Sequence record: NC_027349.1
Direction: 5' to 3' (one strand)
Length of the DNA: 64,000 nt
From: Escherichia phage HY01
The notes below the pieces were generated by a model, which was given only the letters and a program-made list of their open reading frames with translations, searched no databases and was not told the origin of the DNA. Positions 12 to 63,990 of the stretch are shown piece after piece (the first letter of the stretch is position 1; every line of letters begins with the position of its first letter). The position numbers and the translations under genes are program-made.

Positions 12-2189
12 TTAGGCCGCAAGGGCCTTCATAGTTTTAGCGATTTGGGAAACTTCATCATCACTTAAAGAGTTGCGATAACCGATGAAGTCGGAAACAA
101 TACGGAATTTCTTGGTAAACTCAACGACCATTTTATCACTGTTTTTTGAAGCATTATTTGACAATACATCAAAAAGATTAGTTACTGTCCAGATATCATG
201 ACCGATGGTACCTTTTCCACCGTTGAAATATATACCCTGCAATGAACTAACCATATTACCAAGGCGAGTATATTCTTCAGAAACTTCATCTACACTGAAG
301 TACTTCATCATAAAATCGAGTTCAGGATACTTGATAATTTTATCAATATATCGTTTAGCTGAACTTGAATAACCTACATACTTATCATAATCTACATCAT
401 CAAAAGCATCTACATATAAATCACGCAGAGTTTCAAAAATACATTGGCACTGACCGAGTTCTTTTACCTTTTTCTGTAAAAGCGGACGAATAACATAAAA
501 TTCATTAATGCCAATAAGATTAGCCATACGAATCAAAATATTCATAGATGGATGACAAAGCGATGTAGTACCATCCATAGAGAAAATATCAGAACGATGC
601 ATGTATGCTACATAACCAGTAATTTCATCTGCTTCTGATGTGAGCGTAAATAGTTCCTCTTTTTCCCAGCGCCCGTCTTTAATTTCAAACTTAAATGCAG
701 TAGCAGCTTTAGGACGAGGAGCTGTACTTTTTACTGCCTTTGGAATATAACTTTTAACTAAAGCTTCAATTTCTGACAAATAATGAATGTTAACTTCATC
801 ACTTTCAAACATCGCCATAATATCAGGGAGTAAATCAATCTGCGATTCTACTTCTGGATTAATAAACAGAAGACGCTCGTTGTGATGAATATTTAAAGTG
901 TTATTAAATTCACTATCATCTAACGCATGTGCTAATCCACGAACAATATTAACACGATTTTTAATATCATCAATAACGATATTAATTTTTGTTGTATTAA
1001 TACCAAACAGACGATAACTTGATGCGACGGCTGAAGTTTCATGACTTTGCTTAATGCGTTTCAGTCGAGGGTCAAGATTTACTTCATACACAACCCCTGC
1101 ATTGCATAACTTACTATCAGGTTCAAACATGCTCTGCATCTTTTTATATGACAGATTTTTAGTCGTGAATTTGACTGAATTACTAATCATATAATCTCGA
1201 GCAGAATACCCCATCTTCATCAATTCACGATATGTGTGACGAGGAGATGTAGATTCTTTAAATCGTTTTACATCTTCATTGAATGCCTTCTCACTAAGCT
1301 CTTTAACACGCTCAATAATATTTTTACGAGTACGATCATCTAGTGAAAGAGCCTCACGCGATGGAGCAATATCAAGTGAACCCATTGGAAACTTAATATA
1401 ATTCACTTCATTGCGGATGCTTAGCCAGTTACGGTCTCTAATAACACCATCAATAGGATAAACAATACCACCATAGATAGCATATAATCCACCACGATCT
1501 GGCCAGTATCTTTCTGGATTTACGCCGTAATAATCATCAAAATCCGGAAAATAATCAATTTCGCGGTCAAGACCATTAATGATAGCCAAATCTTTGAATG
1601 GTCGCATGATATAAGAAACTTCATAAGCAAAGTTTCTAAAGTCTTTTTCTTCAACTGGAACTACGATTTCAATACCAGTTTTATCATCTGGACCCATTTC
1701 TTTTACGAATGTAGGTTTAATTTGTGGACCATCGCCATCCATGTAAGCTACATAACCACGAATTTCGCCTTTATGATATGAAGTAATACTAAATGTATCA
1801 GTATAACTAAACGGAGATTTAGAACCTAAACCAAATCCACCAATGAAATCGTTAGATTCAGCCTTAGATGAACTAAAGTATGAATTATACAACCCAGGAG
1901 AATTATCATCACCCTGAATATCAAAATCGCTCATACCCGGACCAAAATCTCGACAAACAAATCGCGGATCTAATCGTCCTGGAACTTGAATGATAAATTT
2001 TTCAGGATTTCCATTGAGAGCATGGGCATCAATCATGTTGGTAATCAATTCACGAACCACTGCGCGAATCTTGTTTGTATACAAATCAGATGACAGAATT
2101 TTAAATACTTTAGGAGACGCTGTGATGCTAAATGCTTTTGATTTAGAACCATTACCAAGAATAGTTTCTTTTTCAGTGGTGATAATCAT
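12..2189 (-). CDS. rIIA: rIIA protein (rapid-lysis / exclusion locus, membrane-associated ATPase-like)
   Basis: 725-aa ORF; size, position at the window start and sequence match T4 rIIA as recalled. Confidence 0.93.
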
Positions 2190-17891: not shown

Positions 17892-18056
17892 TTACTCTTC
17901 TTTTTCTTTAGATTCCTCTTTTTTCTTTTTAGGAATCTGCTCAGGACCTTTATTTACTACAGCGCCTGACGTTGTTCCAGTGGAGATATTTTCAGGATTA
18001 CCACCTGAATCTCCAGCGACCATATCTTCTTTGATAAATTCTTTATATGTTTTCAT
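17892..18056 (-). CDS. 61.1: hypothetical small acidic/lysine-rich protein
   Basis: 54-aa ORF translated by hand directly upstream of gene 61; coordinates approximate. Confidence 0.3.
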   Translation of the reverse strand: MKTYKEFIKEDMVAGDSGGNPENISTGTTSGAVVNKGPEQIPKKKKEESKEKEE

Positions 18057-61070: not shown

Positions 61071-61451
61071 TCAATTAGAAAATAAATTTATCCAAGATTG
61101 CTCTTTAATTAAAAATGGCTCAGAATCATATGCCATTAAACTTTGGGTAATTAGTCCTTTAAAAGGCCCATCAATAAATTCCATGGTAAAATATGGAATT
61201 TTATTCATTAATCTTGCATTAGGAGCAGTGCATAAAACTCTGCATCCTTTGAATACACCTTTTTGTAATTTGTATTGCTTAGGATAAAATTCACTCAAGA
61301 CGTTGTTATTTGCCAAAATTTCAAAATGATTCACCAATTTATTTTTAATAGTTTTTGGCGAAAAATAAAGATATTCGAAAAGTTGCGTGTCTGTCATCAT
61401 TGCATTCCGATTATGAAAAACTGTGGACGAGTAATACCACCAATGCAACAT
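61071..61451 (-). CDS. hypothetical protein
   Basis: 126-aa ORF (start probably internal). Confidence 0.35.
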
Positions 61452-61984
61452 TTACTATTGCAACAGTGGTGCACAGTTTCAATATGAATATCGTAAATTT
61501 TATCCATATCAGGAGATTTAACAGGCTCATCAATTATATACAAAATCCGCGAAAGCGATAAACCTCTGAACTTGCTTCCTTTATTACCGATAAAACTACG
61601 GACAGAATCGGTAAATAAGCGGAATCGAATATCATCGCCAGAATAACGAGAAAATTCTTTTTTAATGTGGCCCGCAGAAATTTTAGCGTAAGCTGAAGTA
61701 TTAGAAAGAACAATAACTGTTCCACCATCATACAGCCAATTAGCAGCAAAGTTAGTCACAGCAGTTGATTTACCGGATTGTCTGCCACCATCTAATCGAA
61801 GTGTGCAATACTGCTTGAGTAAGTCTTCAAATGGTGGGATATAATCGTTTTTACAAATTTCTTCTACTCTAGCATCAGAATGGTGTGTAAAAGCATTCAT
61901 CAGGGATAGATAAGGACCAGTTAAAAATGTTCTCATTTTATTCTCTCTAAATTTGGGCCATTCCATGGCGCATGAATTGTCCAT
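61397..61984 (-). CDS. P-loop NTPase-like protein
   Basis: 195-aa ORF with Walker A GGRQSGKST and a Cys cluster HHCCNSKCC; start may be the internal Met near 61936. Confidence 0.45.
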   Translation of the reverse strand: MDNSCAMEWPKFRENKMRTFLTGPYLSLMNAFTHHSDARVEEICKNDYIPPFEDLLKQYCTLRLDGGRQSGKSTAVTNFAANWLYDGGTVIVLSNTSAYAKISAGHIKKEFSRYSGDDIRFRLFTDSVRSFIGNKGSKFRGLSLSRILYIIDEPVKSPDMDKIYDIHIETVHHCCNSKCCIGGITRPQFFIIGMQ

Positions 61985-62089
61985 TTCTGTATTTACCCAT
62001 TACCGCACTTGGGCTCGACCTTATTACAGGTTGGCGGGAATCCCTCACAGAATCATGAGGTCCAGGTTGTTCCCATATTTCTTATTTGC

Positions 62090-62563
62090 TTATTTGAATG
62101 ATTTAACGTACTGAATAGAACCTTTACTATTTACAAAGGCAATTTTACCATTTTTATTGTACATAGTAGCAGTACGCTGATAACCATAAGTTTGTTTACC
62201 AGATTGATAACCAACTAATGCGAAATTATCTTCGCCCATTTTATTCTGTTTAGCGCGGATGCGTTCATGACCGTGTGCCATAAGAACCTTAGCATCACCA
62301 GTTGAAATTGATCTACGAGTTTTTTCATCTTCAACTGTATTAACAAAGTCGTCAAATGAATCAAATTTAGCATGGGATTTATTATACAGTTTTCCATCTA
62401 CTGCATAATTATATCCCTGTACATCCATCTCAACTTCTGTACCATCATCCAATACAGCAGTGATTTTTTGACCTTTTTTAAATTTCAAAAGATCAGTAAA
62501 AGATTCAGCAATAATTTGAGAATTAATAGCTGCTTCAGTGATAAATTCTTGATATGTTTTCAT
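62090..62563 (-). CDS. capsid-targeted internal protein (IP family), distinct from T4 IPII/IPIII
   Basis: 157 aa beginning MKTYQEFITEA (capsid targeting sequence consensus); between denV and e. Confidence 0.65.
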   Translation of the reverse strand: MKTYQEFITEAAINSQIIAESFTDLLKFKKGQKITAVLDDGTEVEMDVQGYNYAVDGKLYNKSHAKFDSFDDFVNTVEDEKTRRSISTGDAKVLMAHGHERIRAKQNKMGEDNFALVGYQSGKQTYGYQRTATMYNKNGKIAFVNSKGSIQYVKSFK

Positions 62564-62572
62564 ATGTTTCCT

Positions 62573-62989
62573 TTAAATGTAAATATTTTTGCCGTAATAC
62601 TTGTACCAGTGTGGCTTCATTAAAATTTTTTTATCGAGTCGTTGTTGACTCAATTTAATAGCTGATTTGCATGGATTATAATCATTTTTCCATTCTGCTG
62701 GAATATCGCTGATGTCAGGAACTTCAGTATCTTTTATACTAAACCCACGTTTTAAGCATTCCATTATAATGTCTGATTGACGCTTTCGCAAAAATTCTAA
62801 CTTGTCGTAAAAGAACGTAACATGACCAGAACCTAAAATAAACTCGGAAGATATTTTAAAATCTTTAACCCGCTTACCATTTGCCACGTGTTTACGAACT
62901 ATACCAAAAACGCGTGGCAATTCACGGTATTCTGCGATTAAATGTTGATCAGCAAGTTCAGATACTAAAGTCAAATTAATACGAGTCAT
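62573..62989 (-). CDS. denV: endonuclease V (pyrimidine dimer DNA glycosylase)
   Basis: 138 aa [17 protein letters not shown]...; matches T4 endo V family. Confidence 0.9.
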
Positions 62990-63048
62990 TTTATCCCTCC
63001 AAGTAACTGTGAATATACTATCACAATTCTAGGAGAAAGTAAACCACT

Positions 63049-63579
<531 letters not shown>

Positions 63580-63580
<1 letters not shown>

Positions 63581-63990
63581 TAAAAGAGGCTGTTCATTAT
63601 TCGGTAAAGTGAAGGACCCATCACATATTGCCACTGGGTACGAGGAATAAGAGCAAAAGCGTCCATCTCTGGAATCATAATGCCATCTTTATTTTCAAAA
63701 TAAGACTCACAATGGCAATTTCTAAACATCTCATGCTCTACTGGAATCGTATAATAAAATAACTGTAAGTCTTTATTACTAGAATATTTAAATACACCTA
63801 GGTCTTCTAGAAGGTCTGGATTATAATTGCTAAAACCAGTCTCTTCTAAACATTCTCTTCGTGCTGCATCTAGTGCGTTTAAATCAGAATTTTCTACGCG
63901 GCCCTTTGGGATATCCCAGCGATGTGCCATCATTCCAGGCTTACGAGAACCAGTAACCCGACCCATAAATAAATCTTTATCTTCTGTCAT
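63580..63990 (-). CDS. nudE: Nudix hydrolase
   Basis: 136 aa with Nudix box GRVENSDLNALDAARRECLEETGF. Confidence 0.85.

Follow-up and report, generated by a model that had tools for sequence, protein, structure and literature searches.

ip4, a catalogued T-even internal-protein gene, lies downstream of denV in Escherichia phage HY01 and probably encodes a packaged, processed and injected head protein

We analysed a stretch of 64,000 nucleotides from Escherichia phage HY01 (NC_027349.1; the window) and focus here on a 157-aa open reading frame (ORF) at 62090..62563 (minus strand), whose predicted product starts with MKTYQEFITEA. An ORF of this length with a capsid-targeting start had been reported at these positions in the original prediction, which gave no strand, and both the ORF and its start were confirmed. 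The genes on the minus strand are ordered nudE, e, denV, ip4 and vs.8. The original prediction had placed the gene between denV and e, which is wrong, as ip4 is downstream of denV and the e-denV spacer is only 59 nt long. Genes for T-even internal proteins are found near e/denV or near 57B, and the order e-denV-ip4-vs.8 places ip4 near e/denV. The locus has the following features.

63580..63990, minus strand: nudE
63557-63564 and 63570-63577, minus strand: two TATAAATA putative late-promoter motifs upstream of e (the same pair is found before T4 e)
63049..63543, minus strand: e
62990..63048, minus strand: e-denV spacer, with a block like a T4 early promoter (GTTTAC, 18 nt, TAGTAT) and an inverted repeat (by sequence motif)
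62573..62989, minus strand: denV
62532..62590, minus strand: 5' block of the internal-protein (IP) cassette, with the last denV codons, the ribosome-binding site (RBS) and the leader DNA, common with T4 ipII/ipIII (blastn)
62090..62563, minus strand: ip4 (ipIV), coding for the 157-aa precursor of the internal head protein Ip4 (ORF plus matches to PEC04_0013, Pfam, phrog and K3)
62534..62563, minus strand: putative capsid-targeting sequence, residues 1-10, MKTYQEFITE (likeness to the T4 IPII/IPIII leaders; virion peptides of an orthologue)
62090..62533, minus strand: predicted mature Ip4*, residues 11-157 plus the stop codon (147 aa, ~16.5 kDa, calculated pI 9.1; computed values)
61397..61984, minus strand: vs.8, main ORF

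Both neighbors of ip4 differ from their T4 counterparts. The denV allele shares 77% protein identity with T4 denV, compared with 96-97% for the flanking e and nudE, indicating local mosaicism at denV. The vs.8 gene is split relative to T4: a 33-aa ORF (61947..62048, minus strand) corresponds to the N-terminus of T4 Vs.8, and the main ORF continues in another frame. The 105 nt of apparently intergenic DNA between ip4 and vs.8 are therefore former vs.8 coding DNA, 91% identical to T4 and frameshifted here. A tRNA or structured RNA 3' of ip4 was considered and rejected: no tRNA was predicted by ARAGORN, the only Rfam match (a snoRNA) was below threshold, and the stretch shares homology with the 5' portion of the T4 vs.8 coding sequence.

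Judged by its sequence, the gene at 62090..62563 is the catalogued ip4 and not a novel gene. Its nucleotide sequence is 100% identical to PEC04_0013 of Escherichia phage PEC04 (KR233165, Tequatrovirus hy01), and 318 phage records carry the gene at a nucleotide identity of at least 90%. The best match of the protein in the structural databases is UniProt Q38388 ('Ip4 [Enterobacteria phage K3]', 98% identical). It also matches the Pfam family DUF7412 (PF24183; 1.3e-95, 318.2 bits against a cut-off of 27, positions 1-157 of 158) and, over its full length, phrog_3155 ('internal virion protein', 1.1e-101). The gene is annotated as ipIV in Kha5h and PP01, and the Kha5h note names RB51, RB70, RB32, RB14 and T2L as ipIV carriers. 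K3 Ip4 (Q38388) and ipIV of Kha5h, PP01 and T2 are the same protein, with nothing of substance different; local gene order alone varies, with denV between e and ip4 here and ip4 directly after e in T2. Ip4 is named among ~10 T-even internal proteins by Repoila et al. 1994, as that work is cited in PMC12373910 and PMC3012670. The alignment to known internal-protein families that had been proposed as a check thus returned the Ip4 family and not IPIII, and the description of the protein as divergent or novel fails in view of its matches to K3 Ip4, DUF7412 and phrog_3155 and its wide distribution.

By tblastn, Ip4 is encoded in 469 phage records, including those of T2 (99.4%), RB10, phiD1 and pSs-1; the T2, Kha5h and PEC04 versions are 99-100% identical to the protein in the window. 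Of the 469 records, 159, at 60-80% identity, are of Klebsiella (Jiaodavirus) and Salmonella (Gelderlandvirus) phages. A collection of 5.8 billion proteins holds only 14 Ip4 clusters (at 90% identity), and only seven were returned when 1.84 billion representatives (at 50% identity) were searched exhaustively with a profile. The distant members (E of about 1e-22 to 1e-17) start with a leader-like MNFEQFLNES or MNFKDFLNES, giving the pattern M-x-F-x-x-F-L-N-E-S, and one of them is encoded directly after a denV-like gene. Two copies are irregular: Ip4 of Klebsiella phage vB_Kpn_AM_K5 (P0014) is 184 aa long, with an aberrant C-terminal part that diverges beyond residue ~132, and the match in vB_Kpn_AM_K6 (H75) has a coverage of only 42%. 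These two copies are either frameshifted, decaying, or assembly errors.

The start region of ip4 closely resembles those of two T4 internal-protein genes. The denV stop is separated from the ip4 start codon by 6 nt, and ip4 has a good, strong ribosome-binding site (AAAGGAAACAT-ATG; in longer form TTTAAAGGAAACAT-ATG). By blastn, the DNA that runs from 27 nt before the start codon to the leader codons aligns with the T4 ipII start at 94.9% identity over 59 nt and with the T4 ipIII start at 93.6% over 47 nt. The leader itself is closely similar to those of T4 IPII (MKTYQEFIAEARV) and IPIII (MKTYQEFIAEASV), with 10 out of 13 N-terminal residues identical between Ip4 and IPIII. The leader match in ip4 is not a chance match, because a search of all six frames of the 64-kb window with the leader motif gave only two ORFs, ip4 and a 54-aa ORF. 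Ip4 also has the prohead-protease motif (L/I)-x-E, as I8-T9-E10↓A11, with a predicted cut after Glu10. E10 is invariant across the alignment of the Ip4 family, and the leader and the I-x-E site are kept throughout the family, including its distant members.

The similarity to the T4 proteins does not extend past the leader. By BLASTP, T4 IPIII aligns with residues 1-13 of Ip4 with no similarity beyond, and T4 IPII aligns at 31% over 77 residues, an alignment that is driven by the leader and does not amount to similarity of the mature proteins. Ip4 and T4 IPII/IPIII also belong to different phrog families. The original prediction was right in this respect, having stated that the rest of the protein does not look like T4 IPII or IPIII. 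T4 IPII and IPIII therefore share with Ip4 the targeting sequence, the I-x-E motif, the DNA block around the start codon, the polymorphic e/denV locus and a basic mature protein, but not the sequence after residue ~13. T4 IPI* (Ip1), an inhibitor of GmrSD from E. coli CT596, is like Ip4 in class (an injected, protease-processed T-even head protein), but its locus is near 57B, its leader is longer (MKTFKEFTSTTTPVSTITE↓A) and its phrog family is unrelated. Taken as sequence evidence, these comparisons support the assignment of ip4 as an internal-protein gene with a capsid-targeting sequence.

Ip4 had also been described as a single internal protein, which holds for the e/denV locus only: PEC04 also encodes a T4-type IPI (PEC04_0257, phrog_4363, outside the window) and a further leader-bearing ORF. 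The latter, PEC04_0002 (157 aa; 1259..1732 of KR233165, plus strand, also outside the window), has a leader-like start, MKSYAQFLNEA (MKSYAQFLNEAVLNEA...), is located upstream of the e.x genes, and is annotated as hypothetical (phrog_2280); it is a candidate for a further internal protein. The 54-aa ORF found by the leader scan (17892..18056, minus strand, MKTYKEFIKEDMVAGDSGG...) starts in a way that resembles a capsid-targeting sequence and carries the site I-K-E↓D. This ORF is immediately upstream of the primase gene 61 and is gp61.1 in the JS98 annotation (phrog_1823); tblastn found gp61.1 in 1227 phage records, among them T4-like phages of Acinetobacter and Aeromonas.

Evidence for packaging and processing comes from published virion data on an orthologue. 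The 'internal virion protein' gp127/119 of Klebsiella phages ValerieMcCarty03/04 was detected with 66/66 spectra in CsCl-purified virions (PMC13119998, Table 3), and VMC04_119 (WKM80649.1, 159 aa) is an Ip4 orthologue that is 70% identical to the window protein. We re-examined all 66 WKM80649.1 rows in Supplementary Data S2 of that study. Among these 66 rows there are no peptides from residues 1-10 (the leader peptide TYQEFLNESR is never present), and two spectra, E.SRLATVGVMTESVGSNLLK.F, have a non-tryptic N-terminus at residue 11 (S11), with low scores (20.7 and 18.1). The N-terminus at residue 11, together with the empty residues 1-10, supports leader removal at the expected protease cut. 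We also considered a second cut at the conserved (I/L/M)-x-E↓S (E20/E21), which was rejected: the virion peptides R.LATVGVMTESVGSNLLK.F and SRLATVGVMTESVGSNLLK of the orthologue span E20/E21, so this second I/M-x-E site is not fully cut. An IPII-like protein in the same virion data has 1/26 spectra in the two sister phages, as compared with 66 for the Ip4 orthologue.

These data support the packaging of Ip4 and the removal of its targeting sequence, as seen in an orthologue of 70% identity. From the orthologue we infer that the mature window protein consists of residues 11-157 (147 aa, 16.5 kDa); with a pI of 9.1 it would be basic, as are IPII* and IPIII*. Virion proteomics had been proposed as a check on the original prediction, and the published data in effect supply it for the orthologue, which is abundant and leader-less in virions.

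The expression signals of the locus suggest that ip4 is transcribed with its upstream neighbors. It retains only the RBS-proximal portion of the cassette block, the promoter portion being gone, and is therefore probably co-transcribed early with denV and late with e and denV. The block in the e-denV spacer is the probable early promoter for denV-ip4. Nearly the same blocks precede T4 ipIII, ipII and denV; the inverted repeat overlaps two elements, the -10 region and the Shine-Dalgarno sequence of denV, and a 42-nt piece of the block is 95% identical in Klebsiella phage ValerieMcCarty04 (VMC04). This block may be both a cassette recombination site and a promoter. The late motifs before e are the probable source of late e-denV-ip4 transcripts, which would arise by read-through, and no minus-strand terminator is predicted between these motifs and ip4. 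A late promoter of ip4's own was rejected, as the pair before e contains the nearest exact TATAAATA. The late gene e is the immediate upstream neighbor of ip4 in T2, Melville and VMC04.

Gene arrangements at this locus differ among phages: e-ip4 without denV in T2, e-ip4 in Melville, e-ip4-ipII-like in VMC04, e-(93-aa IP)-denV-ip4 in Kha5h, and e-ipIII-ipII-denV-vs.8 in T4, which is without ip4. The ip4 gene is one of the interchangeable T-even internal-protein cassettes. In VMC04, the IPII-like protein VMC04_118 (L005:1679-1981, minus strand) hardly differs from T4 IPII when the two are compared by eye, whereas Ip4, e and NudE are 57-70% identical to their Tequatrovirus counterparts, which suggests a recent exchange of internal-protein cassettes between genera.

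Where it is present, Ip4 looks vertically inherited and constrained. All 11 nucleotide differences between ip4 in the window and in Kha5h are synonymous (11/11). Between Tequatrovirus and Jiaodavirus (same genome pair), Ip4 is 70% identical, as against 65% (lysozyme e) and 57% (NudE), and the dN/dS of ip4 is about 0.15, with dS saturated. By these measures Ip4 is under purifying selection across three genera (Tequatrovirus, Jiaodavirus and Gelderlandvirus). At identities of at least 95% there are 305 Ip4 records, versus roughly 500 for gp61.1, and about 40% of the Tequatrovirus-level records appear to be without Ip4. This pattern of conservation indicates that Ip4 varies by presence or absence and not by rapid sequence change, a form of constraint more in keeping with a conserved target or with a structural role than with a rapid arms race at the interface.

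Structure and sequence searches gave no clue to function. The AlphaFold2 model of Ip4 (13-sequence alignment; pLDDT 73.7, pTM 0.67) predicts a long N-terminal helix, followed by beta-rich elements resembling a small barrel and by short helices. Foldseek returned no PDB matches for the model at E <=0.001, and a search of BFVD returned only Ip4 itself; weak fold matches were to small SH3/Sm/Tudor-like barrels, and T4 IPI* was absent among the structural neighbors. Nothing above noise came from NCBIfam, PADLOC or a profile search of the PDB, and no likeness of Ip4 to any known inhibitor was found in fold or sequence. We also rejected an enzymatic reading: H64 and H99, otherwise invariant in the family, are replaced in the distant members P0015 and P0016, which argues against a conserved catalytic site.

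The best explanation as a whole is that ip4 is a cassette gene for a protein that is packaged, processed and injected, to which we assign a probability of roughly 0.85; its identity and packaging are firmer still. A 157-aa precursor would be translated from transcripts initiated at the late promoters before e, and probably also at the early promoter before denV. Residues 1-10 (MKTYQEFITE) would direct this precursor to the prohead scaffolding core, and the prohead protease (gp21 in T4) would cleave it after Glu10, at the I-x-E motif. The basic 16.5-kDa Ip4* would remain in the head with the DNA and would presumably be injected at infection. In the host it may bind and block a modification-dependent (type IV) nuclease that attacks hydroxymethylcytosine or glucosylated DNA, of another subtype than those screened.

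This last step, in which Ip4* would be an inhibitor of type IV restriction like T4 Ip1/Ip2/Ip3 and Bas37_0260, is tentative, and we put it a little short of even odds. In T4, the proteins Ip1, Ip2 and Ip3 are inhibitors of GmrSD type IV restriction enzymes, a different one for each protein, and all proteins of the two Ip loci have been proposed to target GmrSD-family variants (Silas et al. 2025, PMC12373910). Bas37_0260, a leader-bearing cassette protein, blocks McrBC (preprint, bioRxiv 10.1101/2025.11.20.689424), so the target range of such proteins is wider than GmrSD; it bears a leader like that of Ip4, but is encoded at the ipI locus and is described as unrelated to IPI-III. However, ip4-10 gave no reproducible inhibition when tested against additional GmrSD variants (PMC12373910, Supplementary Fig. 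9). In addition, T2 is restricted by GmrSD-ECOR17 and GmrSD-ECOR21 (PMC12373910) although it has Ip4, and Ip4 therefore does not neutralise these two enzymes, which are the known GmrSD targets of Ip2/Ip3. The lack of fold or sequence similarity to known inhibitors also counts against an inhibitor, as does the strong conservation of Ip4, which is unlike that of a fast arms-race protein and is the main reason why we keep an anti-restriction function below one half. The original prediction of a candidate injected anti-defence effector agrees with the standard hypothesis of the field (PMC12373910), but the first GmrSD test of ip4-10 gave no reproducible inhibition.

A less likely possibility is that Ip4 is an ancestral, vertically inherited injected effector with a fold of its own and a target other than GmrSD, conserved in Escherichia, Klebsiella and Salmonella (a non-GmrSD defence or a core host factor). 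A conserved target of this kind would explain both why Ip4 is more conserved than lysozyme and why the GmrSD screens were negative.

We consider it somewhat more doubtful that Ip4* has no anti-defence role and is a DNA-associated head component, acting as a basic counter-ion in packing, in genome condensing or ejection, or in non-specific protection. Its mature pI is near those of IPII*/IPIII*, its orthologue is abundant in virions (66 spectra, versus 1/26 for the IPII-like protein), and its weak matches are to barrels of a type common among nucleic-acid binders; the purifying selection with vertical-looking divergence in the three genera and the negative GmrSD screen would also be expected of such a component. 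But T4, which is without ip4, packages its DNA normally, and Ip4 appears dispensable for head function, because about 40% of Tequatrovirus-level records seem to do without it. Moreover, all leader-bearing proteins of known role (4/4) are nuclease inhibitors.

Also unlikely, and slightly more so, is an injected effector directed at a non-restriction target (another defence or a conserved host takeover target), in the manner of Alt, an ADP-ribosyltransferase that is packaged. Delivery of enzymes by heads is known (for Alt, 189/191 spectra were recorded in that virion proteome, PMC13119998), the conservation of Ip4 in phages of E. coli, Klebsiella and Salmonella points to a conserved target, and the GmrSD screen of ip4-10 yielded none. 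However, positive evidence for such an effector is nil, the putative catalytic residues H64 and H99 are lost in P0015 and P0016, and beyond the DUF7412 match there is no relative in Pfam, NCBIfam, PADLOC or PDB. Finally, it is very improbable that the leader is a relic and that Ip4 is made but not packaged in this phage, acting only within the infected cell: ip4 does follow tightly on denV, an early gene, and its cassette block is left without the promoter part, but the leader and I-x-E site are conserved even in distant members, the orthologue is abundant and leader-less in purified virions, and late promoters lie upstream with no predicted terminator between.

As a discovery, ip4 carries little weight, since gene, protein family, leader and anti-defence hypothesis had all been recorded before, and T2 itself has the gene. 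It is nevertheless the commonest internal protein at the e/denV locus outside T4 (469 phage records). Three points may help in the design of a hunt for its target: published proteomics can be re-read for removal of the leader at Glu10 and for the incompletely cut second site, Ip4 is under purifying selection in three genera, and it has no structural relative.
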